A stretch of 32,000 nt of DNA from Candidatus Minimicrobia sp. QA0096 (lineage in GTDB: Bacteria; Patescibacteriota; Saccharimonadia; Saccharimonadales; Saccharimonadaceae): assembly GCF_963967315.1 (NCBI RefSeq), contig NZ_OZ017288.1:480001-512000 (forward strand). Reading direction: 5' to 3'. Shown here piece by piece: positions 8,943 to 32,000 of the stretch. How positions within the stretch are numbered: position 1 is the stretch's first letter; each line of letters starts with the position of its first letter. The translations under genes were made by a program, and so were the position numbers. The notes under the pieces were generated by a model, which did not search any database, was not told the DNA's origin, and worked only from the letters and a program-made list of their open reading frames with translations.

Positions 8943-10050
8943 ATATCCTCCTCAATTCCTCAAAAGCATCATAAATATTATCTAATTTTCCGCCCATAAT
9001 ACAAATATATCCATCGTTGCCAAAGTCATTTCTGAACAATATCGGACGACTGTCATCGTCTTCACTCTTCACTAAAACCGTCTTCACTTCAACGATAGAT
9101 TCACGATATTTCATATTTTTCAAGGCTGGAATAAACCTCACAACATCATTATACATCTGCCTATAGTTTGATTTAAAGGGGCGATTTTTCAAATATTCAT
9201 GAGTTTTGATACGCTCGGCGCTAGTATTTTCATCATCAATCCACGATTCATGTGGCGTGTAACGAACGTGTGAAAGAGTATATAAATTCTTCGAAGGAAA
9301 TGGCATAATCGAGAAAAACGGACCATCCATCACTGTTATGCTAAAGTCCTTAAGCTGCTGAGGTAGCTCAACAAGACACATCTCGGTAATTTCATGTTTA
9401 AGTCCAACTAGCGGTAATCCAGATGCACGATGTAGCGTATTAATATTTGAGTAAGTACAGTTTAAAACAAAATCCGCTTCATAACTATCACGATCAGTAA
9501 CAACATTTATTTTACCCGCGCCGCCAGCAGGCAATTCAATTTTACTGACAGATTCTCCAGTATGAATACTAATGCCCTTATATTTATTAATGCGCTCTAC
9601 CAAAAGCTCTCTTAGCTTTCGTGAATTGAACGCGTATTCTTTAACCTTAAAAACCTCTTCAATCAACGACGGATTAAACATTTTTTCTATATCATGCGGA
9701 GCACGCTCAATTTCAGAACCAATCTTCTCGCAAAAATGTTCGAATTGCTTAGCGTTAACCTTTGAAAGATGCTTAGCAATTCCATAATATTTCTCAAAAT
9801 TAGATACTACAGCTGGACCGTATTCATCAACAAAAACTGGAAAGTTAACCGCTGAACGAAACCCAGTCAAAACGCTACGAGGATAATGATATCCATTATG
9901 GATGCGCGCCTGATTCACATAAGAGGCTCTATCCATCAACGCAGTTTCTTTCTCGATAATAATTATATTGTCTACACCAAGTTCTTCGTGCAGATATAGT
10001 GCTATCCTTAGCCCATAAAATCCACCGCCAATAATAACTGTACTATTCAT
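8920..10050 (-). CDS. FAD-dependent oxidoreductase (DAO/LhgO-like Rossmann flavoprotein)
   Basis: N-terminal VIIGGGFYGLRIALYL...IIIEK beta-alpha-beta FAD motif, followed by ASYVNQARIHNGYHY, which resembles the S-x-x-N-S-G-V-I-H-x-G-x-Y-Y signature of DAO-family enzymes. 376 aa. Confidence 0.7.
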   Translation of the reverse strand: MNSTVIIGGGFYGLRIALYLHEELGVDNIIIIEKETALMDRASYVNQARIHNGYHYPRSVLTGFRSAVNFPVFVDEYGPAVVSNFEKYYGIAKHLSKVNAKQFEHFCEKIGSEIERAPHDIEKMFNPSLIEEVFKVKEYAFNSRKLRELLVERINKYKGISIHTGESVSKIELPAGGAGKINVVTDRDSYEADFVLNCTYSNINTLHRASGLPLVGLKHEITEMCLVELPQQLKDFSITVMDGPFFSIMPFPSKNLYTLSHVRYTPHESWIDDENTSAERIKTHEYLKNRPFKSNYRQMYNDVVRFIPALKNMKYRESIVEVKTVLVKSEDDDSRPILFRNDFGNDGYICIMGGKLDNIYDAFEELRRIYGQEKAN

Positions 10051-11416
10051 ACTTCACCGTCCTTTTTACTACATAATCAGCCCACAACCCAATCAACATA
10101 TATACGAACAATAGTAGAGGTATGTAGAATATAATGCCGTTTATGTGAGCGTGCGGCAATGCGTGCCCCGGCATAAGAGCAAGCCAACAAAAAGCTCCAA
10201 TAACAGAGAAATTCATAGACCAAAGAAAAGGTCTGCTGTATTTCTTACTAATGATCTTTCTGGAGCTAAGAATAATCAAATACCCAAGAATAGTCCAGAA
10301 TAGAATAGACTGCACAAACTCGCCAAACATACCATTAATATGTACAGGCAAAGTAATTGCTGGAAGTAGCAAATAATTGACGACATTTACAATAATATAC
10401 TTATATGTTTTTCCGCTATTATTAGCCATATTGTCCAGATTCACTATTTGATTTATGAAGTTGTAAGTTTCAGGTCGTAAGATTTTAAAGTTACCGACGG
10501 CGTATGCCCTCATAGAACGTATACCAGAAATTCCCCTATCTGACGCCCTGGCGTTTATAGCACTCGCGGCTTTATCGGACGACCCGTAATAATCAGTAAG
10601 CGATATAAAGTTTACCCAATAAGCACCAAAAAACGCAACAACCGTAGCAGCAAACACGGGCACTGCTTGCTTCCAAAGATTAATGATTTTCACGTTTTTA
10701 TAAACTAATTCAAAGAATACTACAGGAACTAATACAGATATAGCGATTGTCGATACGTATTCATATCCATTTAGTAGCTTGAGGAACATAGCTACAGATT
10801 CAATAATGTAAAATAGCCAAAGTTTTTTTGATTTCTTAAAATATTGATAGCCAACAAAAGATATTACAAACGGAGCTATCAACAGCGGTTCTATCCAATA
10901 TATATTGCGAGCATACCCAGCAATCCAAGGGCTAAACGCCAACATTACGGTGAAAACAGAAGCAGTAATTCCGCCAAACAACGCTCTTATTTTTTGAACG
11001 ACTAGAGCTAGTAAAAAGGCAGTAAGCACAGCCAGGAATATAGATACTCTTTTGATGTAAGCTGGGATTTTGGAGGCATCATTCGGAGATAATCCAGCTA
11101 TAGCCCTCGCCTGTAAACCGTATTGAGATACATAAGGTTTTACCTGAGACGGATTACAATCTTGGCTCATCATTATCTTATTGTAATCTTTACTGTCGGC
11201 TGCTATTAACGGACCTTTATAATCATATTTATTTTTGCAATAAGCAGTTTTCTCTATTATGGCAGACGAATCTTTCTGAAAACCGTCAAACCAGCCGTTC
11301 CATAGTCCTGTTCCAAAAAAATTACCAATAAATGATATTGATAATATAAACCAGACTACAAAAAAGAAAACTACCCCAGGTTTATTCTTACTCCACTCTT
11401 TCATTACAAATATCAT
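10043..11416 (-). CDS. Polytopic integral membrane protein (possible GT-C/polymerase-like), first gene of the 11416->7124 operon
   Basis: Hydrophobic helices throughout. The ORF-track start at 11530 would overlap the divergent gene at 11465 and its promoter. The internal ATGs at 11416 or 11404 are more plausible, and 11404 sits 10 nt downstream of a TGcTATTAT box. Confidence 0.5.
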   Translation of the reverse strand: MIFVMKEWSKNKPGVVFFFVVWFILSISFIGNFFGTGLWNGWFDGFQKDSSAIIEKTAYCKNKYDYKGPLIAADSKDYNKIMMSQDCNPSQVKPYVSQYGLQARAIAGLSPNDASKIPAYIKRVSIFLAVLTAFLLALVVQKIRALFGGITASVFTVMLAFSPWIAGYARNIYWIEPLLIAPFVISFVGYQYFKKSKKLWLFYIIESVAMFLKLLNGYEYVSTIAISVLVPVVFFELVYKNVKIINLWKQAVPVFAATVVAFFGAYWVNFISLTDYYGSSDKAASAINARASDRGISGIRSMRAYAVGNFKILRPETYNFINQIVNLDNMANNSGKTYKYIIVNVVNYLLLPAITLPVHINGMFGEFVQSILFWTILGYLIILSSRKIISKKYSRPFLWSMNFSVIGAFCWLALMPGHALPHAHINGIIFYIPLLLFVYMLIGLWADYVVKRTVKYE

Positions 11417-11423
11417 AATAGCA
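11415..11423 (-). promoter_or_regulatory. Extended -10-like TGcTATTAT 10 nt upstream of the ATG at 11404
   Basis: The minus strand reads gTGcTATTATgatatttgtaATG. It lies back to back with the plus-strand -10 at 11452. Confidence 0.3.
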
Positions 11424-11451
11424 CAAAATAGACTAAAGAAGCTACCTAGTC

Positions 11452-11457
11452 TATAAT
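11452..11457 (+). promoter_or_regulatory. TATAAT 7 nt upstream of the ATG at 11465
   Basis: tagtcTATAATctgaattATG with no Shine-Dalgarno. Confidence 0.45.
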
Positions 11458-11464
11458 CTGAATT

Positions 11465-13615
11465 ATGAATAAGAAAGATTGTGTATTGTCTATTATTATA
11501 ACCGCCCACCGCGAGGGTCTTGTTGCGCATAAGACTATGAAATCAGTCGAGCGTGCTGTAAAAAAAATTGAGGAAGCGTCCATACCTTATGAAGTGATAG
11601 TTTCTATAGACAGAGGTGATGATCAAACTATTAATTATTTCGATAATTATACTGGTCTACCTATACACGTATATCAATGGGATCATGGAGATCTTTCAAG
11701 TTCGCGAAATAGTGCCATAAAAAAAGCGCATGGCCAATTTGTTTCTTTTATCGACGCCGATGACTTAATGAGTGAAAATTGGCTGCACGACAGCGTTCAA
11801 TTGCTATTAAAAAAACCTTACGGGAAATATGTTGCCCACAGCGCTTATACTATAGAATTCGAGGGCGCGGACTCTATTGTCCAAAAAACTGGCTGCACCA
11901 CTAAAGACCAAGATATCTTATTAAGCGTTCTATCTGGACGCTGGAATTCCGTTATCATCGCGCCGATTACGCTTCTTAAAAAATTCCCGTATGCACCAAA
12001 TAGCCCAGGATATGGATATGAAGATTGGTACTTAAGTTGTTGCTTGATTGAAAATGGCGTAAAAAACATTCTCATTCCACAAACAGCAATATTTGTACGT
12101 CGTAAATCATCAGGATCAGAGTGGGCGCGCCAAAAAGCTAGTCGATCATTACTGCACGCACATCCAATATTTAAGCCGTCCAATTTTCGCTCTATAGATA
12201 TCAACAAAATTCGCGTTCCTCAATCAGAGCAGCACCGTCAAACAAAAAACACAATCAAAGAATTAATCATACGATCGCGCATACCGTTAGGATTGATCCG
12301 CCGACCCCTGGCTATAATACGCCGTGGACGCAATGCATTACTAAAACGACCAGCACATTCACAAATTGCAGAATCTATACCAAAATGGCTGAAAACAGAA
12401 TGGAAAGCTCTTCACTCAATAGAAAAAGAAATTTTTCCACCATCACCACTACCAAGCACATACCACACAATCACCGACGACCATTATCGAGTTGGTCTTG
12501 CGTATTGGGAAATATGTAAGGAATTACGAAGTGATAGCTATGATTACGCTCTATTTGTACCCTGGCTTAAGAGAGGCGGCGCAGATTTATTTGCCGTCAA
12601 TTACGCAAACACCGCGGCTTCAATAGGAAAGAAAGTGCTCGTTATCTCCACTAATGAAGTTCCCGCTGACTATTCAGAATGGAGGTCGCAGCTAGATAAG
12701 AAAATAGATTTCTTACAATTTGGGACAATAACTCGGTTCTTTAGTATTGACCAAAAATACAGATTGCTTGAACAATTGATCGAAAACACCAATATTAAAA
12801 CTTTACATATTCTTAATTCTGAGCTAGCTTATGATTTTGTACGTGATCACGAAACATACATAAAAGCTACCAACAAGCGAATAATAGCTACTGCATATAG
12901 TCAGAGTACTGATGAGACGGGACGAATTTTTGGATTTTCACACAGTCACATACCGCAGGTATATCAACTTCTTGATTTAATTACGACAGACAACGAAGCA
13001 GTAAAATCTATGTGGGTCAATGAATATGCATACGATCCTCAAAAAATAGTCGTACATCATCAACCACTGACAAAAAATCATTATCCTGTAGTAGACAAAT
13101 TACCGAATAGTCGTAGAATATTATGGGCTTCTCGATTGGCGCCAGAAAAATTGCCTAAATTAGTATCGGAAATTGCAGATCTTCTTCCTGAAGACGTTCA
13201 TATAGATATGTACGGAGATCCTTCACCAGAGTTCCCTGCAAGTAGCCTACCGCCGCATCCACGTGTTCATTATATCGGTGGATTTAACGGAGTAGCATCT
13301 TTGCCGGCTGAAAAATATGACGCTTTTCTATATACCTCACTTTTTGATGGTATGCCAAATACGCCAGTCGAGATAGCTTTACGCGGACTACCAATAGTTG
13401 CAGCTAGAGTTGGCGGGCTTCCTGACTTTATAGGTGAAAACGGCTTCATAGTTGACGATATCACTAATCCAAAAGCATATGCGAAATGTATTAAGCAGAC
13501 TCTGGATGATATAAAATCATCGTTCCATAAAGCCAAAAACTTGCGGGAGAAAGCATCCCGCGAGTTCTCGGAAGATTCGTTTATGGATGAAGTTAAGGAT
13601 ATGTTCTCAAATTAA
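11465..13615 (+). CDS. Bifunctional glycosyltransferase: N-terminal GT2 domain fused to a C-terminal GT4/GT1-like GT-B domain
   Basis: N-terminus LSIIITAHREG...FVSFIDADDL (GT-A fold with DXD). C-terminus RILWASRLAPEK...SLFDGMPNTPVEIALRGLPIVAARVGG (GT-B EX7E-like). About 110 aa of basic linker lies between them. 716 aa. Confidence 0.8.
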   Translation: MNKKDCVLSIIITAHREGLVAHKTMKSVERAVKKIEEASIPYEVIVSIDRGDDQTINYFDNYTGLPIHVYQWDHGDLSSSRNSAIKKAHGQFVSFIDADDLMSENWLHDSVQLLLKKPYGKYVAHSAYTIEFEGADSIVQKTGCTTKDQDILLSVLSGRWNSVIIAPITLLKKFPYAPNSPGYGYEDWYLSCCLIENGVKNILIPQTAIFVRRKSSGSEWARQKASRSLLHAHPIFKPSNFRSIDINKIRVPQSEQHRQTKNTIKELIIRSRIPLGLIRRPLAIIRRGRNALLKRPAHSQIAESIPKWLKTEWKALHSIEKEIFPPSPLPSTYHTITDDHYRVGLAYWEICKELRSDSYDYALFVPWLKRGGADLFAVNYANTAASIGKKVLVISTNEVPADYSEWRSQLDKKIDFLQFGTITRFFSIDQKYRLLEQLIENTNIKTLHILNSELAYDFVRDHETYIKATNKRIIATAYSQSTDETGRIFGFSHSHIPQVYQLLDLITTDNEAVKSMWVNEYAYDPQKIVVHHQPLTKNHYPVVDKLPNSRRILWASRLAPEKLPKLVSEIADLLPEDVHIDMYGDPSPEFPASSLPPHPRVHYIGGFNGVASLPAEKYDAFLYTSLFDGMPNTPVEIALRGLPIVAARVGGLPDFIGENGFIVDDITNPKAYAKCIKQTLDDIKSSFHKAKNLREKASREFSEDSFMDEVKDMFSN

Positions 13616-16279
13616 TTAAGCAGAAACCCTCATCTCAGTCTTCACCACCTCTTGTCCAGTTTCGAGGGGTGGTGTTTTGTAGTCTTGCCACCTTCTACCG
13701 TCAAATGTAGAGAAATATGCGTTATATGTACCTACTGGGAATTGACGAGTTGCTTTGAATTCTAACTCTTGATTTGACTGAATTGTTGATGGAGAAAGAC
13801 ATCCTAGATCGTAGTTTTGCCCGCTTTGGTTACGTAGGATTAGACAAGTGTACTCACTGGTTGTTATTGGTTGATTAGAGGAGTTTTTTAGTTTGAATGT
13901 AGTTGTGACTGAATCGCCAGAGCGAGGGTTAGCACTAGAGAACGTTATACCTTGAGTGAGTGTTAAGCTAGGAAGAACTGTGAAGGTGGTGCGAGAAGAT
14001 TCCTTTCCTGTAAGTCCTGGAGGATAAGCTCCTTCACGCCATACTCCATTGTCATAAAGCGAAAAGAACGCTTCATATTCACCAGGTTCATTAAACGTAC
14101 GACTCAGAGAGAAGCTTGATTGGCTCTTAGGTGGAATTCCACTCGTAGGCAAACATCCTAAGTCATAGTTGCCACCCTGCCGCCTGCGAATGATATAGCA
14201 TAGCTGCTGATTATGATTAGACACGCTAGAGCTAAGATTCTCTAACTTGAAAGTACCTGTCAGTTGCTCACCGACATGTGCAGTAGTGCTACTAATTGAT
14301 AGTCCTTCAGAAAGAACGACGTCAGGAAGAACCCTCATCTCAGTCTTCACCACCTCTTGTCCAGTTTCGAGGGGTGGTGTTTTGTAGTCTTGCCACCTTC
14401 TACCGTCAAATGTAGAGAAATATGCGTTATATGTACCTACTGGGAATTGACGAGTTGCTTTGAATTCTAACTCTTGATTTGACTGAATTGTTGATGGAGA
14501 AAGACATCCTAGATCGTAGTTTTGCCCGCTTTGGTTACGTAGGATTAGACAAGTGTACTCACTGGTTGTTATTGGTTGATTAGAGGAGTTTTTTAGTTTG
14601 AATGTAGTTGTGACTGAATCGCCAGAGCGAGGGTTAGCACTAGAGAACGTTATACCTTGAGTGAGTGTTAAGCTAGGAAGAACTGTGAAGGTGGTGCGAT
14701 TGCCAGCACTGGCGTCCGTAGCTACAGGATACTGAGCTTCTGTCCACGTCCTACCACCGTCAAGAGTCCCGCTAATTCTTGCTCGATACAGCCCTTCTTC
14801 ACGCGGTAAAAACTCTTTGTTGTAATTGTATACAGCGCCTGGAGATAATTGATTAACTGTATCAAAGACAACATCAGCGTTCTTTCCACTTGGACTTGTT
14901 ATAGCTAAGCCAAAGTAACCAAGATCAACAGGTTTGGCACTATTATTTTTTACCTGAAAACCTACGTTAACTGATTGATTTTTATGAATGCGCGAAATCT
15001 GTGTCGTGACGGCAGAAACTACTGTTGGAGACGATTGAACAAATGCTGCAACTTCACGAACATTTCCCGCTGAAGATTCTGGATAATTGTCGCTCCACCC
15101 ACTACCATCACGATAATTACTGATCCAAAACTTATAATCACCTTCTTTATTCAATCTAGTTGACGCTCGATAAGTATATGATTGCCACGGCTCAAGAACA
15201 ACGCGCTGACTGCCAAAATCGTAATTATTCGAATTGCTATCCCGACCTGCAATTACCATCACACCTAAGTCACGACGCTGGTTAGTGGAATTGCGAATAG
15301 TGAAAGATGCTGTTATTTCCATATTCGTAAACAATTTTGATCCAATTTTCTCCGTCTTTATGGATAATGGCGAATCAATTTTGACAGAATTCAACGGAGA
15401 ACCGAACCACTCATTGAAGAACCTCCAGAAGTTTCGATTGCCATAAGCTCCACAATGTGCAGTTCCCGCACCAGCGTCCAAAGCCCCTTGATTCGGCTGA
15501 TATGGCGTGTAGTTATACAGACTCGCGGTCGCTTGGTTCTCAATATATACCCAACTTCCGCCACAAGCTGCATCTGGATTGTATTGGATGTAGTTGGTTC
15601 GACCCGCCTTGTAACGATATTCATTTGGCCTATTCGCATAAAGTCGTAGTTGGCGCGCAGCCATACGCAACTGGTTGTATAGTCCAGCATATTCACTTGA
15701 ACAATTTGCAGTATTTCCTGGACCGTTGTCTGGGCAAGCAAATCCCATAGCATATTTATATTGACTCTTTAAAGGCCACGAGTCAGTAAACAAAGACCCC
15801 TGTTCCTTCTTCAATATCACTAACATAACCTGTGGGTTAATGCCAAATTCTTTTGACACATTCCAAATAATTTGTGCAGTAGATAATCCACCACTAAACC
15901 AGCCGCCGCCTTTTTCAAATGAGGTTTCTTTAGTGTTTGGATTCTCGTGATAATTACGCAGGCAAGCATACGGCGGACCATGCCAGCCGCGGTTAACAGC
16001 ATATTGCGCTCGCGTACCGCCACCATATTCAGACCGTCCAGCTCCCCATGTGTCACAGGCAGGAGTATGGTCGTTTATAAAATTCTGGATATCTTGAACG
16101 CTAGCAAATGTATTTGTATCATAAAAAACATTATCATCGATAATCCTACCAGCATTCCAAGGAGATAGCGCTCCAGTCCTCGGCCAAAAAATAAACCCTA
16201 AGACAATAACACTCACCATAGCTAACGTGCAGCTGACATATTTTAATCTCGTCCACTTCGTACGTCTTATTTCAATCAC
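13616..16279 (-). CDS. Secreted, N-terminally anchored protein: Cys-rich lysozyme-like (putative peptidoglycan hydrolase) head plus five ~115-aa CARDB/Ig-like repeats
   Basis: TM/signal anchor LKYVSCTLAMVSVIVLGFIFWP. The head contains GINPQVMLVILKKEQGSLFT (resembling the catalytic-Glu region of lysozyme-like folds) and 6 Cys. The repeats carry a G-x-x-V-T-x-x-F-x-L-K-N-x-S pattern. GTG start overlaps the upstream stop (GTGA), with AAGGAGAG Shine-Dalgarno. The enzymatic call is inference. Confidence 0.55.
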   Translation of the reverse strand: MIEIRRTKWTRLKYVSCTLAMVSVIVLGFIFWPRTGALSPWNAGRIIDDNVFYDTNTFASVQDIQNFINDHTPACDTWGAGRSEYGGGTRAQYAVNRGWHGPPYACLRNYHENPNTKETSFEKGGGWFSGGLSTAQIIWNVSKEFGINPQVMLVILKKEQGSLFTDSWPLKSQYKYAMGFACPDNGPGNTANCSSEYAGLYNQLRMAARQLRLYANRPNEYRYKAGRTNYIQYNPDAACGGSWVYIENQATASLYNYTPYQPNQGALDAGAGTAHCGAYGNRNFWRFFNEWFGSPLNSVKIDSPLSIKTEKIGSKLFTNMEITASFTIRNSTNQRRDLGVMVIAGRDSNSNNYDFGSQRVVLEPWQSYTYRASTRLNKEGDYKFWISNYRDGSGWSDNYPESSAGNVREVAAFVQSSPTVVSAVTTQISRIHKNQSVNVGFQVKNNSAKPVDLGYFGLAITSPSGKNADVVFDTVNQLSPGAVYNYNKEFLPREEGLYRARISGTLDGGRTWTEAQYPVATDASAGNRTTFTVLPSLTLTQGITFSSANPRSGDSVTTTFKLKNSSNQPITTSEYTCLILRNQSGQNYDLGCLSPSTIQSNQELEFKATRQFPVGTYNAYFSTFDGRRWQDYKTPPLETGQEVVKTEMRVLPDVVLSEGLSISSTTAHVGEQLTGTFKLENLSSSVSNHNQQLCYIIRRRQGGNYDLGCLPTSGIPPKSQSSFSLSRTFNEPGEYEAFFSLYDNGVWREGAYPPGLTGKESSRTTFTVLPSLTLTQGITFSSANPRSGDSVTTTFKLKNSSNQPITTSEYTCLILRNQSGQNYDLGCLSPSTIQSNQELEFKATRQFPVGTYNAYFSTFDGRRWQDYKTPPLETGQEVVKTEMRVSA
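13625..13994. repeat. Copy 1 of a 370-bp perfect direct repeat (encodes the C-terminal 'A' domain of the 887-aa protein)
   Basis: I compared it base by base with 14330-14699 (offset 705 bp) and saw no mismatch. The flanks diverge immediately (gaagat vs ttgcca on one side). Confidence 0.9.
14330..14699. repeat. Copy 2 of the 370-bp perfect direct repeat (encodes the internal 'A' domain)
   Basis: Identical to 13625-13994. The two copies are separated by 335 bp encoding a related but strongly diverged 'B' domain. Confidence 0.9.
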
Positions 16280-16860
16280 CGCAAACTCTCCTTACGGAAT
16301 GACGGATTATTCGAAGACTCTCCTGTATACAATTTTGATGAATAACTCACCTTTACCGATATATCTACCCCTGATGGCAATTCCGACAATGGTATCTCAA
16401 TCATATGACAACTCGTCGAACTTGGACCAGCAAATGAACTAGATTTACGAGAAATACTTCCGCCAGCCCAATACAGTGTAAATTCACAACTACCGCCGTT
16501 CTCAACAATGGAGTTAACCCCTCCGTCAATCTGTAAATATTGCTTATCCGCACTCAATCCATATCCGCTTACAATTGGAACTACTGATTTTTTTGACCCT
16601 GACGACTGCTGATCTCCAGTATTAATTGGTTTATCAGGACTATATCCATCGCGTTTTTCTGGCTTCGCGCTGTTGTCATCAACTTTCTTAGAGTCTTCTT
16701 TTTTATCTGTAGACTCTTTTACTACGGGATTATTAGAATCAGTATTGTTTTGTTGCGGCTTATAAATATACGCAACTGTAGCACACGCCACTAAAGCCAA
16801 AGCCAGCGTAGAAGCAAGTATAATTCTAGTTTTTTTCTTCATTTTTTGTTTGATTTTCAC
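16276..16860 (-). CDS. Small N-terminally anchored (possibly lipoprotein-like) orphan protein with a charged low-complexity linker and a ~100-aa C-terminal domain
   Basis: KKKTRIILASTLALALVAC hydrophobic anchor with a Cys, then a K/D/S/N-rich linker. The C-terminal domain has 2 Cys. GTG start at 16860 (ATG alternative 18 nt downstream). The stop overlaps the start of the 887-aa gene. Confidence 0.5.
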   Translation of the reverse strand: MKIKQKMKKKTRIILASTLALALVACATVAYIYKPQQNNTDSNNPVVKESTDKKEDSKKVDDNSAKPEKRDGYSPDKPINTGDQQSSGSKKSVVPIVSGYGLSADKQYLQIDGGVNSIVENGGSCEFTLYWAGGSISRKSSSFAGPSSTSCHMIEIPLSELPSGVDISVKVSYSSKLYTGESSNNPSFRKESLR

Positions 16861-17949: not shown

Positions 17950-19131
17950 TTATTTCTTACTGGTGTGCCACTTACGTGGAATCATAGTTAAGCCGCCAAA
18001 TGAATGCTCGACTGCGGAAAAATCATTCGTAATAATAAATTCTTCAGCACGATACATCACGTCATACTTCACGGTGCCGTTGTGATTGAGCAGATTAATG
18101 TCGACATAATACGACCCTGGACCTAAATTTGCTTCAATATCAAGAGTTAATTTATTATCGCTAGGCAATTTAGGAAATCCCTCTCTGTTGGTGATAAAAT
18201 TCGATACCAAATTGCTGTCTTTACGATACAAATCTACCATAATAGCCTTAGTCTTATCATTATCCCATGACAAGTCAAGAGAAATCGTTTCTCCCACTTT
18301 AAAGCTACGGCGCTTCTTACCCGTTTTATCGTATATGGCGGTTTTAATATTTTTACCTGTATATTGATGTCTTTGGTCTACAGCTTTATCTATTACAGCT
18401 TGATTGAGCCTACTATATTCATCCGCAACCTGCACTGGACTACCTTCTTTAATAATCTTACCCTCGTGGATCAATACGGCTCGATTACAAAACTTTTTAA
18501 CAGTATCCATATCATGCGTAACCAATATAACCGTTTGCTTGCTGGACTTGTATTGTTCAAAAATGTCTATACACTTACGCTGAAAAGCTTCATCACCAAC
18601 AGCCAGCACCTCGTCAAAAATCATAATATCATTGCGCGCTTTTATTGCTACTGAAAACGCCAAACGAACCTGCATACCCGATGAATAGTTCTTTAATTTC
18701 TGATCCATAAATGGCTCAAGCTCCGCGAACGAAACGATATCATCATATATCAGTTCCATTTCCTTACGCGTAAATCCAAGTAGAGCACCGTTCAAAAAAA
18801 CATTATCTCTACCAGACAGTTCTGGGTTAAACCCAACCCCCAACTCTATGAAAGGCGTCAATTTGCCATTTATTTCAATGCTTCCGCTCGTTGGCTGATA
18901 AACTCCAGCTAGCATCTTAAGCATAGTACTCTTACCTGAACCGTTTCGGCCAACAACACCAAAAAAATCACCTTGATTCACATTAAAGCTGACACCGTCC
19001 AACACTTTCTGAACTGTCTTTTTATTCTTCTTAACAATGTTAACAAAGGCGCTTTTAATACTAGAATTCTTTGACTGTGGAAGAATAAATTCCTTATGTA
19101 TATCTTTTACTACAATTGCAGGTTTTGTCAT
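17950..19131 (-). CDS. Polysaccharide/teichoic-acid ABC exporter ATP-binding protein (Wzt/TagH type) with a C-terminal beta-rich extension
   Basis: Walker A GRNGSGKST, signature YSSGMQVRL, Walker B IMIFDEVLAVGD. About 140 extra C-terminal residues occupy the position of the Wzt carbohydrate-binding domain. GGAGGA Shine-Dalgarno 7 nt upstream. Confidence 0.9.
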   Translation of the reverse strand: MTKPAIVVKDIHKEFILPQSKNSSIKSAFVNIVKKNKKTVQKVLDGVSFNVNQGDFFGVVGRNGSGKSTMLKMLAGVYQPTSGSIEINGKLTPFIELGVGFNPELSGRDNVFLNGALLGFTRKEMELIYDDIVSFAELEPFMDQKLKNYSSGMQVRLAFSVAIKARNDIMIFDEVLAVGDEAFQRKCIDIFEQYKSSKQTVILVTHDMDTVKKFCNRAVLIHEGKIIKEGSPVQVADEYSRLNQAVIDKAVDQRHQYTGKNIKTAIYDKTGKKRRSFKVGETISLDLSWDNDKTKAIMVDLYRKDSNLVSNFITNREGFPKLPSDNKLTLDIEANLGPGSYYVDINLLNHNGTVKYDVMYRAEEFIITNDFSAVEHSFGGLTMIPRKWHTSKK

Positions 19132-19938
19132 TTAAATGTCCTCCGCGAAAAATCGTTGTCTGCGCTGAAAATACCAACTTCCTAAACCAAATATCACAAT
19201 AACTATAATGATTGGAATAAACCACAATAACGGATTATGAAAAGTCTGCCAAATAGTTTGAGATGCGGGATTATTAGGCATTAAAGCGTGTCTGGCATCT
19301 TGGATAATCTGTGTAATTGGATTTAAAAATGCAATCTTTTGTATGACTGACGGCATAGAAGTAACCGCAAAAATAATACCGCTCGCATAAAGTCCTGCCT
19401 GCAATAAGATTTCCCATATATAAGCAATATCGCGAAATATCACATAAAGAGCAGAAAGTAGCAAGGACAGTCCAACGGATAATATAAATAGCTCAGCTAT
19501 AGCTGGAATAAGTAGCAACCACGAAAAAGTAGGAAATAAACCACTAAGAAACGCAAAAAGTATCACCACTATCATTCCTAAGCCGAGGTTAATAAGCGCC
19601 GACACACTGCTTGCAATAACCAGAAGATGTCGTGGAATTGCCACCTTGCGAATCAATTGTCCATTATCAACAACGGAACGCGTACCTATCATAGTAGCCT
19701 CAGAGAAAAAGTTCCACAACACAATTCCCATTAGCAGCCAAACCCCATAAGATTCAATACCTTTACTACCCTGAGGAAATGCATATGTAAACAACACATA
19801 TAAAATACCAAACATAAACATAGGTTTTAAGAGAGACCAAACATATCCCAAAACTGAACTTTGGTATCTTACTTTAAAATCTGTACTAACTATTGCGCGT
19901 AAAATCGCCTCATTTTCTTTATTCACAAGAATACGCAT
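19132..19938 (-). CDS. ABC-2 type polysaccharide/teichoic-acid exporter permease (Wzm/TagG type)
   Basis: N-terminal DFKVRYQSSVLGYVWSLLKP motif typical of ABC-2 permeases, with six or so hydrophobic helices. It abuts the ATPase gene with no gap. Confidence 0.9.
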   Translation of the reverse strand: MRILVNKENEAILRAIVSTDFKVRYQSSVLGYVWSLLKPMFMFGILYVLFTYAFPQGSKGIESYGVWLLMGIVLWNFFSEATMIGTRSVVDNGQLIRKVAIPRHLLVIASSVSALINLGLGMIVVILFAFLSGLFPTFSWLLLIPAIAELFILSVGLSLLLSALYVIFRDIAYIWEILLQAGLYASGIIFAVTSMPSVIQKIAFLNPITQIIQDARHALMPNNPASQTIWQTFHNPLLWFIPIIIVIVIFGLGSWYFQRRQRFFAEDI

Positions 19939-25781: not shown

Positions 25782-27137
25782 GTGGATAGTCATGCGGTTT
25801 GGCAGGGTGTTTTAGGTGAGATTGAAGTAACTGTATCGTCTTCGTCGTTTACTGCGTGGTTTAAAAATACCAAATTGGAAATAATCTCCGAAAAAGAAGT
25901 TCTTATAATTGCGCCGAATATTTTTGCTAGAACTCAACTTGAAAAGCGATTTCACCCGCAAATATTAGAAGCCTTGGCTCACAATGGCATTAATGCTCCG
26001 TCTATTTCTTATAACGTCGAATCTAGCAATAAAAAACCGCGCGTTAATCGTGAAGTTGATAAAAGCGGACAACAAGAAACAGCGAAGCCTCTGATTTTAC
26101 CATCGAGGAAATCTCATTCTAGTAATCTTAATCCCAGGTATACCTTTGACAACTTCATCGTTGGCTCAAGTAATGATCTTGCCTATGCCGCTTGCCAAGC
26201 CGTCGCCGCACATCCAGGAGAAAAATATAATCCGCTCTATCTTTACGGAGGGTCTGGACTTGGTAAAACTCACTTAATGCAGGCAGTTGGAAATGAGATA
26301 ATTAAAAAGCAGCCATCGGCGCGAGTGCTTTACATTACTACAGAAACGTTTGTTAATGAATTTCTGGATTCTATTCGTTTCAAGAAAAAAGGTTTTTCTG
26401 ATAAATATCGCAATGTCGATGTATTGATTGTCGATGATATGCAATTTATCGCTGGGAAAGAAAAAACTCAGGACGAATTTTTCCATACATTTAACGATCT
26501 TCATCAAAACAACAAGCAAATCATTATTAGCTCAGATAAACCGCCAAAAAGTATTCCTACTCTAACCGATCGTTTGCGTAGTCGATTTGAATGGGGTATG
26601 GCGATCGATATTCAGATGCCCGATTATGAAACTCGTTGTGCTATCGTTAAAGCAAAAGCTGAACTCAGCAACACTGAACTAGATTCCGATGTCGTAGAAT
26701 ATCTGGCGACCAACTTTAAGACGAACATTCGCGAGTTGGAAGGCGCTTTGAATAGACTGCTTGCTTATGCGGAAATGCAGAATTTCACTCCTGATTTAGC
26801 GGCGGCTGAAGGAATCTTGGGAGATATTAAACGCAATAGACCACAACATATAACCGCCAAACAAATAATTGATAAGACGGCGCGCTATTATAATATTGAC
26901 GTAAAAGATATGTGCTCATCCAGGCGAGATAAATTTATCGCGATGCCAAGGCAAATTGCGATGTTTCTTCTGCGTAGTGAGCTGAAAATGAGTTTTCCGA
27001 AAATTGCCCAAGAGCTTGGACGAAAAGACCACACTACCGCTATGCATTCAATTGAAAAAATCACCAAGGAAAGCCTTACTAATGTCAGTATTCGCGAGCA
27101 AATTAACGACATTAAGGATAAATTATATGTTCATTAA
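25782..27137 (+). CDS. dnaA: Chromosomal replication initiator protein DnaA
   Basis: AAA+ Walker A GGSGLGKTHL, Walker B VLIVDDMQF and a C-terminal DNA-binding domain (GRKDHTTAMHS). GTG start with GAGGGAG Shine-Dalgarno 8 nt upstream. Confidence 0.98.
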   Translation: MDSHAVWQGVLGEIEVTVSSSSFTAWFKNTKLEIISEKEVLIIAPNIFARTQLEKRFHPQILEALAHNGINAPSISYNVESSNKKPRVNREVDKSGQQETAKPLILPSRKSHSSNLNPRYTFDNFIVGSSNDLAYAACQAVAAHPGEKYNPLYLYGGSGLGKTHLMQAVGNEIIKKQPSARVLYITTETFVNEFLDSIRFKKKGFSDKYRNVDVLIVDDMQFIAGKEKTQDEFFHTFNDLHQNNKQIIISSDKPPKSIPTLTDRLRSRFEWGMAIDIQMPDYETRCAIVKAKAELSNTELDSDVVEYLATNFKTNIRELEGALNRLLAYAEMQNFTPDLAAAEGILGDIKRNRPQHITAKQIIDKTARYYNIDVKDMCSSRRDKFIAMPRQIAMFLLRSELKMSFPKIAQELGRKDHTTAMHSIEKITKESLTNVSIREQINDIKDKLYVH

Positions 27138-27138
27138 T

Positions 27139-27338
27139 TGTGGAAAAGCTGTGCAGATGTTGTGTTTTTGCGGCGACTTACCAACACACAGATCTGTGGA
27201 AAGAAAACAACAAGTCAGCAGACAGTGGAATAATACACAAATATCCACTATAAAGTCCACAAATAGCACACAGAGTTTTCCACCTATTTTATCGCCACTC
27301 TACCCCTGTTTGAACACATTTTTTACCCAGTTTCCACA
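27139..27338. promoter_or_regulatory. DnaA-box cluster 2 (dnaA-dnaN spacer), candidate oriC core
   Basis: Seven box-like 9-mers. TGTGGAAAA 27139, TGTGGAAAG 27195 and AGTGGAATA 27224 are in reverse orientation. ATATCCACT 27241, AAGTCCACA 27253, TTTTCCACC 27276 and GTTTCCACA 27330 are in forward orientation. Confidence 0.7.
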
Positions 27339-27343
27339 GCACC

Positions 27344-27373
27344 TATTACTATTAAGACTAATTAAAAAATTAA
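27344..27373 (+). other. DnaA-trio-like triplets followed by an A/T-only run (candidate unwinding element)
   Basis: After the last box and a short GC spacer (gcacc), the sequence reads TAT TAC TAT TAA GAC TAA with an A at every middle position, then ttaaaaaattaa. This resembles the box / GC spacer / trio / AT-rich layout described for Bacillus subtilis oriC. It is short and runs into the dnaN ribosome-binding site. Confidence 0.3.
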
Positions 27374-27383
27374 GGAAAGTATA

Positions 27384-28481
27384 ATGAAAGTATCAGTCAC
27401 TCAAGAAAAACTCGCAAAAGCACTTAATCTAATCAAAGATATCGCATCGAGCCGTAATGAACTGCCGATATTAAATAATATTTTACTTCGCACCGATGGA
27501 GGAAGATTATTGATTGCTGGAACGAATTTGGAAATTGCTTCTACTCAATACATTGGTGCGAAAATTGAAGATCATGGATCTATTACAATCCCTGCCCGAT
27601 TGGTATCAGAATTCATTACAAACTTACCAAGCGGTCCAGTGGAACTTGAAACCAAAAACGAACATTTGCATATAACTTCAGGAAAATTCTCATCAGTTAT
27701 CAATGGCGTAGTAGCTGACGAATATCCTGAGCTGCCTACAATTGACGAAAAGACCGCCATGCAATATGAAATTGATGTTGAGGATTTAAAGAAAGCCATA
27801 GTCCAAACGAAGTTGGCTGTTAGCTCTGACGTTACGCGAGCGGTGCTCACGGGAGTTTATTGGCATAATTATGAAGGATCGCTATACTTAGCCGCTACTG
27901 ATGGCTACAGGCTGGCAGAAAAGCGTCTGATAAAGTCGGATAATGAAGTTTCAGCGATCATTCCTGCGTCTACATTGGCGGAAGTCAGTAAGAGCGTCGG
28001 CGATGAGAAGAAAATTACGGTTCTTTTTGACGATTCTCAAGTTTGTTTTAAGACGGGAGATATGGAAATTGTTAGTCGATTAATTGACGGGAAATTCCCT
28101 GATTATCGCCAATTGATTCCAGCGACTGCCGAAACTGAGATCGTTATTAAGAAGTCTGATTTTAGTCGAGTTACGAAAATTGCGGCGTTATTTGCGCGTG
28201 AATCTGGTGGTGGAATTACAATTACCGCATCAGAGGAAAATTCTCTGCTTTCTATTCATTCGATTGCGTCTGAACTTGGTGAGAACACCTCAGAGGCAAC
28301 AGCCAAAATATCCGCAGATGGTCAAGTTACTCTCAATTCGCGCTACCTAACAGAGGTTTTGAATATTATTGACGCGGATGAAATTGTATTCTCATTTAAT
28401 GGTAAATTGTCGCCGTGCGTAATTCGCGAGCAAGTAAAAAATCCTGATTATACACACATTATCATGCCGCTTAAGAGTTAG
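27384..28481 (+). CDS. dnaN: DNA polymerase III beta sliding clamp
   Basis: Typical N-terminus MKVSVTQEKLAKALNLI...PILNNILL. 365 aa. Directly downstream of dnaA. AAGGAAAG Shine-Dalgarno. Confidence 0.97.
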   Translation: MKVSVTQEKLAKALNLIKDIASSRNELPILNNILLRTDGGRLLIAGTNLEIASTQYIGAKIEDHGSITIPARLVSEFITNLPSGPVELETKNEHLHITSGKFSSVINGVVADEYPELPTIDEKTAMQYEIDVEDLKKAIVQTKLAVSSDVTRAVLTGVYWHNYEGSLYLAATDGYRLAEKRLIKSDNEVSAIIPASTLAEVSKSVGDEKKITVLFDDSQVCFKTGDMEIVSRLIDGKFPDYRQLIPATAETEIVIKKSDFSRVTKIAALFARESGGGITITASEENSLLSIHSIASELGENTSEATAKISADGQVTLNSRYLTEVLNIIDADEIVFSFNGKLSPCVIREQVKNPDYTHIIMPLKS

Positions 28482-29121
28482 TAGAAAACGGAGATAATCT
28501 GGAGGCTGTTTCTGATAAAATATCTTCTGGTATATCTTTGGTGTTGTATATAGTATTGATTATTTGTGGCTTAGTTTTAATCACCCATTTGTTATTTTCT
28601 TTCTTCAGAATAACAGTGTAGATATCGCCGGAATTTCTATCTATGACACCTCTCTGATAACTAGCCGCATACCAGTCTGCGTTATTTCCTAGGATAATTT
28701 CTTTTTGAAGTATAAAAGATGATTTTAGCTCTGGATATTTGGCAAATAATACCTCTGAAATATCACTTCTATATTCATTTATTTTACTAGACATGAATTT
28801 TTGGCTATATTCAGTTTTTACAGATATATTTTCATCCGATCCTTTTACGGTAAATTCCGTGGAATTCTCATTGATAGAACCAGATTTAGATGACGTCTTT
28901 ATTATGTATTTGCCGTCTGATAACTGTATCTTAGAATTACCGTTTATCGACGTAATTTCGGAAGTGCTTTTGCTTGTGTTGCGATATATTTTCGCTGACA
29001 GATTTTCCTTATCGAAAGTTATAGATATAGTATGTGTTGGCTGGATGAACATAATCGCTAGCAATATTAACGTTAATATTGCCAATGTAATGCTGCCGAT
29101 GATAATATTCCTTCGATTCAT
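28471..29121 (-). CDS. N-terminally anchored orphan protein (PEGA-like beta domain plus small C-terminal domain)
   Basis: TM anchor IIIGSITLAILTLILLAIMFI. 216 aa. Last gene of the five-gene operon. Its 3' end overlaps the dnaN 3' end by 11 nt (convergent). Confidence 0.55.
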   Translation of the reverse strand: MNRRNIIIGSITLAILTLILLAIMFIQPTHTISITFDKENLSAKIYRNTSKSTSEITSINGNSKIQLSDGKYIIKTSSKSGSINENSTEFTVKGSDENISVKTEYSQKFMSSKINEYRSDISEVLFAKYPELKSSFILQKEIILGNNADWYAASYQRGVIDRNSGDIYTVILKKENNKWVIKTKPQIINTIYNTKDIPEDILSETASRLSPFSTNS

Positions 29122-29123
29122 AA

Positions 29124-29735
29124 TTACTCCGTAAATGTATTAGCGTAGTTTCTAAATGTGATATTTAGTTTTGACGGGTCAAATCCCTGCTCTTTAATCT
29201 TATTGAGGGCAGCATTTCTATATCCTTCTATAGTATCGATTTCTACGATAACTCCATTCTTATGACTAGGGTCTGCCTTATATCCAATTGAATAAATTAA
29301 GTTTTTTATTGGTAATTTTTTAATTATAGGATTGGCGTCTTCTAGTTTTTTTTGTTCATTAGCAAGTCTGTCCGTTGTAGCTCTGTCTATTTCTGATGTT
29401 TTGGAGGAAGACTGCAATTCTTTAATAGCCTCCTCTGTTGTGGGTGTGAGTGCAAAAATTATCCTTAACGGATTACCTTTTTTTACTTCAACATTAATAT
29501 TCTCATCTTTAAAGCCACTTCTTGATGCTTTAAAATTGTACGTTCCTGGTCTTAAATATACGACTTGCGAGCCGATAAATTTTTGACTACCAGTAGTAAT
29601 TTCAGCTTTATCGGGCGAGGTTAGTAGGTAAACCGGAGTGGTGTCATATCTATTTACGTAGGTTATGACGCCATATACTAATGTACTGGCTGATAATAAT
29701 ATTAATATACTGCTAATTATTTTTTTATTCATCAT
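29124..29735 (-). CDS. N-terminally anchored orphan protein with a PEGA-like domain
   Basis: TM anchor IISSILILLSASTLVYGVI. VVYLRPGTYNFKASRSGFKDENINVEVKKG resembles the PEGA motif. The start overlaps the upstream stop (ATGA). Confidence 0.55.
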   Translation of the reverse strand: MMNKKIISSILILLSASTLVYGVITYVNRYDTTPVYLLTSPDKAEITTGSQKFIGSQVVYLRPGTYNFKASRSGFKDENINVEVKKGNPLRIIFALTPTTEEAIKELQSSSKTSEIDRATTDRLANEQKKLEDANPIIKKLPIKNLIYSIGYKADPSHKNGVIVEIDTIEGYRNAALNKIKEQGFDPSKLNITFRNYANTFTE

Positions 29736-30952
29736 TTCTTCCTAAACCAAGTTACGCTTGGTGATGTTAAGCTCTCGTTGCCTGCTTTTGGGGCGTATTC
29801 ACACAATGAGGCGGATGCTATATTTGAGTCAAATCCTTCTATATTACCAACAAAAACAAATGTATGTCCTGGACTATGGGCGACATCACCGGGTTTAAGG
29901 TCTGCTACGTTGATCGAGCTACCGTTACCAAGAGTTTGCCAGTTGGCTTCTGCCCACGCTCTCTGTACGCCAGTCGGCCCAGCTTTACCGCCCTCACCTC
30001 CGTAGTTGTAATTTTTATCAAACCCACTGTCGTTCAAAATCGTTGTTACAAACGCGCCACAATCGACACCGCCGCCATAACACGTACCGCCAGTAAATCT
30101 GTTCTCACTTTTTGCCTTTTCTATAGCTTTTTCGTAATCAGGTTTTTTATCTGTACGAACCCTTTTTTCTGGCCAGGCATAACGTTTGACATAGTCGATA
30201 AAGTCGCCGCCACCGTTTGATGAAGAGCATCCTCCTCCACTTCCGCCTGTACCATTAAATCTTTCATAGATTTTTTGTGCGGCGGCACCGCGTATATTTT
30301 TAACGTCATCTTTTGTCATGGCTGATTTTTCAAAATCGTCATGCCAAAAAACAGTGGCGTCATCAACTGTCTTCAGGGTTTTTAATAATTCCCATGAATT
30401 TGAAGCGGTACCAAATCCACGAGCAGTAACGGGTCTTTCTGTCCCCTCTTGCACTAAATACTCTAATTCGAAGATCAATAGCTTGTCGTTGTCTTCTACC
30501 GGAATAGAATCGACCATACCCTTGTCGTTAGGCGCGCCACCATACTCTTGGCTGTAATATTTTTTTAACTCAGACGGTATTTTATTAGCTATAAGCGTTC
30601 GCCTTCCGAACGTCCACTGGGCAAGTCCCCAACCTCCAGACCCCCATCCTTGACCTACTTCGTGTCTGGTAGGACTAAATCCTGACTCTGCCTGAATATT
30701 AGCCATCACGCCAGCTGTTTGTTCGGCGCTTAATCCTGCGTTGCGTAGATATCCCCAAATCTTTTCTTGGTTATCAGATCCTGATACTCCATTAGAAGAT
30801 GATCCGGAACAAGTTGTTGAATCATTTTCTTTATACCAAAGAATATCGTTTGTTACATATGAATCGGGATATCCTGCCGCCAAAGATACTGGCTGCATAG
30901 TAATAGCAAAAGATATAGCAAAGCAAAGAGCGATAGACAACTTTTTATACAT
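29732..30952 (-). CDS. Secreted two-domain peptidoglycan hydrolase: N-terminal phage-tail-lysozyme-type muramidase plus C-terminal NlpC/P60- or CHAP-like cysteine peptidase (CwlT-like architecture)
   Basis: Signal peptide MYKKLSIALCFAISFAITMQPVSLAA. IWGYLRNAGLSAEQTAGVMANIQAESGF...GWGLAQWT matches the phage tail lysozyme family. A Gly-rich linker follows. The C-terminus has GGVDCGAFVTT (Cys nucleophile context) and AHSPGHTFVFVG (His). Confidence 0.75.
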   Translation of the reverse strand: MYKKLSIALCFAISFAITMQPVSLAAGYPDSYVTNDILWYKENDSTTCSGSSSNGVSGSDNQEKIWGYLRNAGLSAEQTAGVMANIQAESGFSPTRHEVGQGWGSGGWGLAQWTFGRRTLIANKIPSELKKYYSQEYGGAPNDKGMVDSIPVEDNDKLLIFELEYLVQEGTERPVTARGFGTASNSWELLKTLKTVDDATVFWHDDFEKSAMTKDDVKNIRGAAAQKIYERFNGTGGSGGGCSSSNGGGDFIDYVKRYAWPEKRVRTDKKPDYEKAIEKAKSENRFTGGTCYGGGVDCGAFVTTILNDSGFDKNYNYGGEGGKAGPTGVQRAWAEANWQTLGNGSSINVADLKPGDVAHSPGHTFVFVGNIEGFDSNIASASLCEYAPKAGNESLTSPSVTWFRKK

Positions 30953-31394
30953 CAGATCGATTCCTCTTATATTCGTTTATAATATCTGCAGGAACACCAA
31001 TATTTTTTAAGGCGTCTGGGGATTTTCTATCATTAACGCCTGTTATGACTGAATTATTTCTTAGGACTGCATACGTGTTGTAGGTAGATTTGAATTTCTC
31101 GCTATAAATTTCTAGTGCAACCAACTTAAATTCGCCCTGCTCTTTTACTATTGAATACTTTTTTAATTCACGGTTGCCGTAGGTACTAGAGGTAGAATTT
31201 AGTAATTCGGTAATAACTTTCTGTTCTGATGATTGCTCGTGAGTATTATTTTGATTCTCGTTAGTGTTTTGGGATGATGACAGAATAGTTGTGTATTGAT
31301 TGCTGTCAGGGTTTTTAATAATAAGGAAGGTTGCCGTAATACTTACTAAAAATAATACGGATGATATTAGGATAACTTTATTTTCTTTATTCAT
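30945..31394 (-). CDS. N-terminally anchored orphan protein
   Basis: I prefer the ATG at 31394, which overlaps the upstream TAA by 1 nt (TAATG), giving MNKENKVILISSVLFLVSITATFLII. It has a Q/N/S-rich linker and a ~80-aa C-terminal domain. Confidence 0.5.
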   Translation of the reverse strand: MNKENKVILISSVLFLVSITATFLIIKNPDSNQYTTILSSSQNTNENQNNTHEQSSEQKVITELLNSTSSTYGNRELKKYSIVKEQGEFKLVALEIYSEKFKSTYNTYAVLRNNSVITGVNDRKSPDALKNIGVPADIINEYKRNRSDV

Positions 31395-31948
31395 TAGACC
31401 TTCCTCGCATACTCCCAGTGCCATTGTTCGGGGTTACTCCCACCCGGCTCAGCCCAAGCGGGATGTACATAACCGTATTTGTGGGCGTTAGCTTTTAGCC
31501 AATTATATGTAGAAGACCCAAACGCGCCAACTTCAATATCTGCAGCAAGTCCCCAGCCGTGGTTTGATACACACGGGGGAGCTGGAGCTGCTCTTGATCC
31601 TAGCTCTTTACTATATCTAATTTGCGTTGCACAATCTCGATACGCTTCATTAATTATTAAGTCTGACCCGTTATCGGCTTTATACGCTTTATTCATTTCT
31701 TCCATGGCCGCTGCAGCTTTCTTATTCATTTTATTGCCTGACGAGAAAGATAGAGTTTGCAATTCTGAATCTGGAATTCCGCCGTTGCTATGACCTCCCC
31801 ATCCGTCTTGTTGCGCCTCTTCTAATTGAGGTTCGCCAACTGCCTCGCCATTGTCTGGAGCTTTAGCCGTGGTTGAAGGAGCGTCTTCTTCGTCATCTTC
31901 GCCATTGATTGATTGGGCAATTTGGAAATCAATTAATAATACTGACAT
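31394..31948 (-). CDS. Zinc D-Ala-D-Ala carboxypeptidase / peptidase M15B (VanY-like); the 5' end is possibly beyond the window
   Basis: LIINEAYRDCATQ, SNHGWGLAADI and EQWHWEY correspond to the M15 SxHxxGxAxD and EPWH zinc-ligand motifs. The frame stays open from 31948 to base 32000, and no signal peptide is visible, so the true start may be upstream. Confidence 0.8.
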   Translation of the reverse strand: MSVLLIDFQIAQSINGEDDEEDAPSTTAKAPDNGEAVGEPQLEEAQQDGWGGHSNGGIPDSELQTLSFSSGNKMNKKAAAAMEEMNKAYKADNGSDLIINEAYRDCATQIRYSKELGSRAAPAPPCVSNHGWGLAADIEVGAFGSSTYNWLKANAHKYGYVHPAWAEPGGSNPEQWHWEYARKV

Positions 31949-32000
31949 TGCGGAAAGCTTTCTATCGTCGTATTGCTTAGCGGAATTTTCAGCTCCGAAA

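Follow-up and report, generated by a model that had tools for sequence, protein, structure and literature searches.

Chromosomally encoded type IV secretion systems (T4SSs) have been described in the Saccharibacteria (TM7), in which, for the first time, a T4SS was reported as essential to its own carrier. In Southlakia epibionticum ML1, the essential system is encoded by SEML1_0006-0019, beside dnaA (SEML1_0001) and dnaN (SEML1_0002), and includes a TraC/TraG-P-loop ATPase (SEML1_0008) and PrgI (SEML1_0010) (Wang et al. 2023; PMC10633639). The same study describes SEML1_0007 as a protein of 1113 amino acids (aa) with a C-terminal Hedgehog/DD-peptidase fold, SEML1_0006 (643 aa) as comprising two lysozyme-like domains and a cysteine proteinase domain, SEML1_0005 (211 aa) as an exported protein with PEGA/Ig-like plus OmpATb-N-like domains, and SEML1_0004 (249 aa) as prealbumin-like plus BT0923-like (PMC10633639). 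The locus has also been described in Nanosynbacter lyticus TM7x (McLean et al. 2020). The Patescibacteria VirB4 clade adjoins the MPF-FATA class, its locus lies near dnaA/dnaN with relaxases lacking or rare, and it has been proposed that the peptidase and lysozyme homologues directly downstream of virB4 may take the role of VirB1 (Quiñonero-Coronel et al. 2025; PMC12102498); VirB1-like components for the Saccharibacteria T4SS are likewise listed in a 2025 review. Here we analyse a 32,000 nucleotide (nt) stretch of the genome of Candidatus Minimicrobia sp. QA0096, a saccharibacterium of the Nanosynbacter/Minimicrobia group (contig NZ_OZ017288.1, positions 480,001 to 512,000; hereafter 'the window', to which all coordinates refer), in which five reading frames for peptidoglycan hydrolases and membrane-anchored proteins occupy positions 28471-32000, adjoining dnaN.

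This region is part of the published Saccharibacteria T4SS, not a stand-alone operon. We estimate a probability of about 70% that it constitutes the distal end of a chromosomal, Gram-positive-type (MPF-FATA-related) T4SS locus beside dnaA/dnaN, the hydrolases of which form a VirB1-like module. The evidence comes from the gene order of relatives. A scan of one genome per species gave 429 relatives of the lysozyme protein encoded by the third of the five frames, from which 77 loci were kept, and synteny was assessed in a set of 81 loci through iterated profile searches on six-frame open reading frames (ORFs). In two contigs, with lysozyme-protein homologues 94% and 71% identical to that of the window, the same order is found on a single strand with gaps of no more than 60 nt: two TrbL_3/VirB6-like genes, PrgI (VirB3-like), a TraC-like gene, a VirB4-type ATPase, a 980-990 aa VanY protein, a 152 aa protein, the lysozyme protein, a 202 aa protein and a 214-216 aa protein, followed by the convergent dnaN (the TrbL_3 and TraC-like labels are those of precomputed Pfam hits, neither of which was recovered by our own Pfam scan at E ≤ 0.1). 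The VirB6-like protein has numerous hydrophobic segments, and PrgI (PF12666) was confirmed in a relative by our own re-scoring (E = 4.7e-14). Two loci were aligned with the window as nucleotides, with identities in the range of 92-96%: L001 is colinear with 25831-32000 at 93.7% identity, and L009 with 28471-32000 at 96.3%, the nearest locus among those compared being that of Candidatus Nanosynbacter sp. TM7-087 (96.3% over 28471-32000). In both L001 and L009, a 619 aa P-loop_TraG/AAA_10/DUF87 ATPase (E = 7.6e-28) is encoded directly upstream of the large peptidase gene. No relaxase or coupling-protein family was found among the precomputed Pfam hits of genes in approximately 10 kb upstream in relatives; these flanks end at the VirB6-like genes, and an array of VirB2-like pilin genes would be expected still farther upstream.

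The array in these relatives therefore consists of at least ten co-directional genes, of which the window contains the last five, the first being truncated. The five-gene operon of an earlier note on this DNA results from where the window ends, and such an edge can make the tail of a large known locus look like a novel small operon; the same edge accounts for its comment that no secretion ATPase was visible, there being a VirB4 ATPase gene directly upstream in relatives. The note's authors knew of no described system with this gene order, yet it is that of the published T4SS beside dnaA/dnaN. By contrast, one of the roles they suggested, a wall-breaching module for a machine encoded upstream, fits the extended locus well, and the searches they recommended were productive: VirB4, TraC-like, PrgI and VirB6-like genes are present upstream in relatives, and synteny is extensive. 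The order VirB6, PrgI, TraC-like, VirB4, large peptidase, small orphan (where present), lysozyme/NlpC-P60, PEGA-like protein and orphan, then convergent dnaN, is kept in almost all of the 81 loci with sufficient flank, down to 30% lysozyme identity, with a VirB4-family ATPase gene found in 67. In one of these loci, from the complete genome of Candidatus Minimicrobia vallesae IHU2 (L029), VirB4, the large peptidase, the lysozyme gene, PrgI and dnaN are each broken into several ORFs, which looks like the result of assembly frameshifts rather than gene decay.

All five frames of the window lie on the minus strand, convergent with dnaN, and the conserved orthologues that each has in dozens of Saccharibacteria genomes identify them as real genes. 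The junctions between them are exactly as the earlier note had read them. Genes 1 and 2 meet in a TAATG (31396-31392), in which the stop codon of the former overlaps the start codon (31394) of the latter, genes 2 and 3 overlap by 8 nt (30945-30952), genes 3 and 4 share an ATGA (29735-29732), and genes 4 and 5 are separated by a gap of 2 nt (29122-29123). A Shine-Dalgarno-like GGAG/AGGA motif can be read 4-9 nt 5' of every start. The 3' end of gene 5 (28471) overlaps dnaN (27384-28481, plus strand) tail-to-tail by 11 nt (28471-28481), leaving no space for an intervening terminator. When 28300-32000 was scanned for promoter-like and terminator-like sites, their counts were no higher than in shuffled sequence; this weak evidence thus provides no argument for separate transcription.

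Gene 1 (31394-32000) is the 3' end of a gene for a large VanY/M15B membrane protein. Its frame extends for 201 codons from 31394 to base 32000 at the window edge without an in-frame stop, and is colinear with the interior of a 990 aa gene in L001 (L001:6578-9550) and a 991 aa gene in L009, such that the ATG at 31948 represents an internal methionine. The VanY-like zinc peptidase of the earlier note is hence retained as a domain but not as a stand-alone protein of 184 aa. The fragment matches VanY (PF02557) over residues 89-198 with a score of 47.2 bits, exceeding the curated cut-off of 25 (E = 2.5e-12), and the zinc-binding and catalytic motifs SNHGWGLAAD and EQWHWE, corresponding to S-x-H-x-x-G-x-A-x-D and E-x-x-H, are both present and align to the VanY structures 5hnm and 6a6a. 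The NCBIfam VanY and LdcB equivalog models scored far below their cut-offs on the fragment. Gene 1 encodes the C-terminal zinc peptidase head of a polytopic membrane protein of approximately 990 aa, for which D-Ala-D-Ala carboxypeptidase or related activity on muropeptides is putative. In the full-length protein of L001, the N-terminus is acidic, hydrophobic segments are located at approximately residues 105-128 and 341-376, and a region of approximately 400 aa is without a known family. Across 34 diverse orthologues (approximately 900-1100 aa, including those of L035-L081), four cysteines are invariant in the central region that lacks a family match, and the head itself differs between lineages: Peptidase_M23 is found in 14, VanY in nine, M15_4 in three and C39_2 in one. 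This exchange of M15 and M23 heads is a modest new point.

Gene 3 (29732-30952) encodes a 406 aa protein with an export signal, in which a hydrophobic helix (residues 2-18) precedes A-A-G, then a lysozyme domain (approximately 60-232), a Gly/Ser linker and a divergent NlpC/P60-type domain (approximately 250-406). The lysozyme domain, as had been proposed from the sequence, is clearly recognisable: it matches PF18013 (Phage_lysozyme2; E = 3e-25) and the phi29 tail-tip protein gp13 (3csq), both by profile (E = 3e-13) and by Foldseek with an AlphaFold2 (AF2) model (E = 4.5e-6). The NlpC/P60-like assignment of the C-terminal domain was also borne out, through orthologues. PF00877 was not detected by Pfam scan in the window protein, nor did Foldseek against the PDB return any match outside the lysozyme domain; however, seven of 22 orthologues match the family (best E = 5.5e-5). 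The putative catalytic residues are intact, with E89 (in a NIQAES motif), D297-C298-G299 and H363 invariant in all 22, and in the AF2 model Cys298 is at the N-terminus of a helix and His363 at the start of a strand. Gene 3 is therefore likely to specify a secreted two-domain peptidoglycan hydrolase, the bonds cut by each domain being predicted from sequence and model. In related Saccharibacteria homologues (P0010-P0016, P0033, P0078, P0079 and P0081), PF18013 is instead paired with a GDSL esterase (PF13472), Amidase_3 (PF01520), glucosaminidase (PF01832), CHAP (PF05257) or canonical NlpC/P60 (PF00877) domain. The locus thus contains three wall-cleaving domains, one tethered to the large membrane protein and two on a secreted protein.

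Genes 4 (29124-29735, 203 aa) and 5 (28471-29121, 216 aa) encode a pair of bitopic PEGA-like proteins; the N-terminal anchors or signal peptide anticipated for the products of genes 2-5 are all predicted from sequence or models. In gene 4 the anchor is followed by a PEGA-type beta-sandwich and a small conserved C-terminal alpha/beta domain. For the window protein, the sole match is a weak one to CarboxypepD_reg, below the cut-off (E = 1.2e-3), and a PDB profile search with gene 4 returned generic beta-sandwich matches only, yet 23 of 34 orthologues match PEGA (PF08308; best E = 1.6e-10), in agreement with the likeness suggested in the earlier note. The AF2 model of gene 5 (pLDDT, the predicted local distance difference test, 84.8) shows an anchor, a transthyretin/PEGA-like beta-sandwich (29-101), a long helix on a four-stranded sheet (107-181) and a final helix. 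Neither Pfam scans of individual family members nor a PDB profile search yielded a consistent sequence family for this protein, and Foldseek against the PDB gave weak matches of the sandwich to transthyretin-like structures or 3e8v (best E = 9e-4). When compared through hhalign, the gene 5 and gene 4 families match over 84 columns (probability 96.8%, E = 2.6e-10), by which the N-terminal half of gene 5 is a paralogue of gene 4. Profile and structure searches had been advised for the three proteins originally considered orphans; they have placed gene 4 with PEGA and gene 5 with gene 4, but gave no family for gene 2. Each of the pair is found in 76 of the 81 loci, gene 4 directly after the lysozyme gene and gene 5 as the final gene before dnaN. 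In L056, L066, L067, L072 and L074, a single PEGA-like ORF of 300-330 aa, matched by both the gene 4 and gene 5 profiles, is present before dnaN, and may reflect a fusion or the loss of one paralogue.

VirB8 proteins are NTF2-like, and such a fold was considered for genes 4 and 5. No VirB8-like structure was among the top 50 Foldseek matches of gene 5 against the PDB, and the fold was not supported. The gene 5 family profile does have a weak, non-significant match (E = 0.17), at approximately residues 141-179, to the NTF2-like domain of PDB 3h51.

In at least five loci (L053, L063, L064, L070 and L073, and partly in L057, L061, L062 and L078), the large peptidase, lysozyme, PEGA-like and small anchored genes have been duplicated in tandem between virB4 and dnaN. 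The copies of the cassette are only 24-39% identical (39-66% for the lysozyme), and it has therefore long been maintained as a unit; where motifs were readable, the head of the dnaN-proximal copy is of M23 type. As the first PEGA-like pair in these loci does not adjoin dnaN, it tracks the hydrolases rather than the origin. On the basis of this co-duplication, we think that the PEGA-like pair is functionally part of the hydrolase module, which would extend the published boundary of the locus. The co-inheritance and co-duplication of the pair with the hydrolases is a second modest new point.

A third is the presence of gene 2 (30945-31394), a clade-specific gene encoding a 149 aa protein. Its start is within the TAATG, with the Shine-Dalgarno-like GAGGAAGG 5' of it, and a hydrophobic segment at residues 5-28 is predicted to act as an N-terminal membrane anchor. 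Database searches returned 249 homologues, one of which is 100% identical ('hypothetical protein, Candidatus Minimicrobia sp. QA0096') and the best 120 of which are all at least 88% identical; the alignment retains 18 invariant columns among sequences as little as 29% identical. Neither Pfam nor NCBIfam returned a family for it. The gene is found in 38 of the 81 loci, invariably between the large peptidase and the lysozyme gene, and is restricted to Nanosynbacter/Minimicrobia-like clades, no relatives having been detected beyond them. The idea, formed by eye, that gene 2 is a copy of the C-terminal domain of gene 5 was rejected, since hhalign against genes 4 and 5 gave probabilities of 8% and 4.5%. 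Either of two starts could be used, the ATG at 31394 (149 aa, in the TAATG) or that at 31424 (159 aa, extending 31 nt into the VanY gene), and public gene calls of the homologues, with lengths of 149/152 and 162 aa, include both.

The window locus shares with the chromosomal T4SSs of S. epibionticum and TM7x its phylum, its position at dnaA/dnaN and the gene order from the virB6-like gene to the small anchored protein. It differs from that of S. epibionticum in several respects: in the window clade, the additional gene for the 149 aa anchored protein separates the peptidase from the lysozyme; recF is missing from the junction of gene 5 and dnaN; and the lysozyme protein has a single lysozyme domain (406 aa), whereas SEML1_0006 has two (643 aa). 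Several more distant loci have a gap of approximately 1 kb at the dnaN/gene 5 position that could accommodate recF; the window clade has neither gap nor recF.

Outside this phylum, the closest parallels are hydrolases of conjugative systems and a phage enzyme. PrgK of pCF10 and TraG of pIP501 are likewise membrane-anchored proteins, encoded in T4SS clusters, with peptidoglycan-cleaving heads outside the membrane; their repertoire comprises LytM-type, SLT and CHAP domains, and across the Saccharibacteria the heads are of M23/LytM or M15 type. In the Saccharibacteria, by contrast, the activities are divided between two proteins, and the anchor protein has a conserved region of approximately 800 aa with four invariant cysteines; the likeness is one of architecture. 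Similarly, CwlT of ICEBs1 is an exported two-domain enzyme encoded in a T4SS cluster, in which an N-terminal glycan-cleaving domain precedes a C-terminal NlpC/P60-type Cys-His domain. The resemblance of gene 3 to CwlT remarked upon in the earlier note is one of architecture, membership of the same family not being supported. The glycan-cleaving domain of gene 3 is PF18013, of the phi29 gp13 type, while the N-terminal domain of CwlT belongs to another lysozyme family; the NlpC/P60 domain of the window protein is too divergent to match PF00877; and neither profile nor Foldseek searches of the PDB with gene 3 returned an entry described as CwlT or as a conjugative-element hydrolase. The homologous lysozyme domain of phi29 gp13 is also paired with a peptide-cutting activity, for local penetration of the wall. 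In gp13, however, which is a virion component, the second domain is an M23 domain of the same polypeptide, whereas gene 3 has an NlpC/P60-like partner and the M15 or M23 heads of Saccharibacteria are borne by a separate membrane protein, encoded in a secretion-system locus.

By analogy with these systems, the two hydrolase proteins would do the job performed by VirB1, CwlT, PrgK and TraG in other T4SSs. Local cleavage of glycan strands and of peptide stems or cross-links by these proteins would open the peptidoglycan such that a VirB4/VirB3/VirB6 channel and a VirB2-like pilus could cross. The peptidase head would be held at the machine through being part of a membrane protein, and the PEGA-like pair probably positions or restrains the enzymes, or forms part of a wall-spanning scaffold, if the four proteins are indeed physically associated.

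A number of points weigh against this assignment. The window itself contains no T4SS genes, and the link to VirB4, PrgI and VirB6 is drawn from near-identical relatives; the only pointer to co-transcription of the array is the spacing of its genes. None of genes 2, 4 and 5 gave a structural match among known T4SS components, the searches for gene 5 being by Foldseek, Pfam and PDB profile and those for gene 4 by Pfam and PDB profile. The correspondence of SEML1_0005, 0006 and 0007 to genes 4, 3 and 1 is one of position, length and domain class, not of sequence alignment, and the published boundary of the T4SS, SEML1_0006-0019, leaves out the counterparts of genes 4 and 5 (PMC10633639). In transposon-insertion sequencing (Tn-seq), SEML1_0005, 0006 and 0007 lost nearly all insertions in outgrowth, which speaks for the assignment, whereas SEML1_0004, although called 'ES', retained 10-11 insertions with approximately 430-540 normalised reads (PMC10633639). 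That label may be doubtful, and the counterpart of gene 5 dispensable. Moreover, Tn-seq in co-culture cannot separate T4SS assembly from division or from attack on the host.

The last of these bears on which wall, that of the epibiont or that of its host, would be cut. There is a lesser but real chance that the hydrolases, exposed or delivered at the contact site, act on the peptidoglycan of the actinobacterial host, so that its envelope is opened to the pilus or channel of the T4SS, or to provide access to nutrients, with heads matched to the host wall. The lysozyme domain belongs to a phage-tail family that breaches walls from outside, and is paired with M23 in both phi29 gp13 and phage Gp16 (9m7n); gene 3 is secreted, not anchored; and the counterparts in S. 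epibionticum are essential in co-culture. The peptidase head varies by lineage (M23 in 14, VanY in nine and M15_4 in three of the 34 orthologues), as does the partner of the lysozyme (Amidase_3, GDSL, glucosaminidase, CHAP), and the cassette is anciently duplicated and diverged in some lineages; such patterns are typical of host-interaction genes. On the other hand, the hydrolases of the Gram-positive conjugative T4SSs, CwlT, PrgK and TraG, act on the donor's own wall, and the swapping of heads could equally follow the cross-bridge chemistry of the epibiont itself, as Saccharibacteria encode FemA/FemB-type bridge enzymes. A more specific proposal, which we regard as speculative and unlikely, is that the large peptidase, the lysozyme/NlpC-P60 protein and the PEGA-like pair form a self-contained wall-breaching cassette of four genes, inherited and duplicated together, in which the heads (M15 or M23 for the large protein; for the lysozyme protein NlpC/P60, amidase, GDSL or glucosaminidase) are exchanged to match the peptidoglycan of the host, and the PEGA-like pair replaces the VirB8 scaffold, for which no counterpart has been found in these systems. 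Were this true, the cassette would be a determinant of host range. The hydrolase genes are the components of the T4SS most accessible to biochemistry, since their products lend themselves to assays with the sacculi of either epibiont or host.

Much less probable is a housekeeping autolysin or division operon that remodels the septal or lateral wall of its own cell, with the T4SS genes as mere neighbours. M15B, NlpC/P60 and lysozyme-type enzymes are frequent as growth autolysins, core genes are typically located, as here, beside dnaN and the origin, and essentiality in Tn-seq would be expected of a sole division hydrolase. However, the peptidase head is fused to a membrane protein region of approximately 800 aa invariably found after virB4, the genes of the array, virB6 through gene 5, all run in one direction and either overlap or are barely separated, the duplicated loci keep the PEGA-like pair with the hydrolases away from dnaN, and a lysozyme of phage-tail type is atypical for division. 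That the region is instead the remnant of a prophage or integrative conjugative element with its own lysis or entry enzymes, as the Phage_lysozyme2 domain and the conjugative MPF-FATA lineage of the T4SS, thought to be horizontally acquired, might suggest, is very improbable given a dnaN-adjacent position fixed across species down to 30% lysozyme identity, a GC content (0.36-0.42) similar to that of the remaining window, the rarity of relaxases in these loci, and the failure to find genes for an integrase, a relaxase or phage structural proteins over 10 kb of upstream sequence in relatives.

With the VirB1-like module at the end of a T4SS locus as the preferred interpretation, the co-duplication of the PEGA-like pair, the M15/M23 swap and the 149 aa gene are increments on a described system that could guide work on how epibionts cross two cell walls. 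The remainder of the window is of a different character. dnaA (25782-27137) is preceded by yidC, rnpA and rpmH, and positions 1-23629 are occupied by a large surface-glycan cluster for glycan synthesis and export, which includes many GT2 and GT4 glycosyltransferases, a sugar nucleotidyltransferase (2187-3230) and a Wzm/Wzt-type ABC exporter (17950-19938). Several large ORFs in this cluster have no Pfam match: 4983-7097 (704 aa), 10043-11530 (495 aa), 13616-16279 (887 aa) and 16276-16860 (194 aa).

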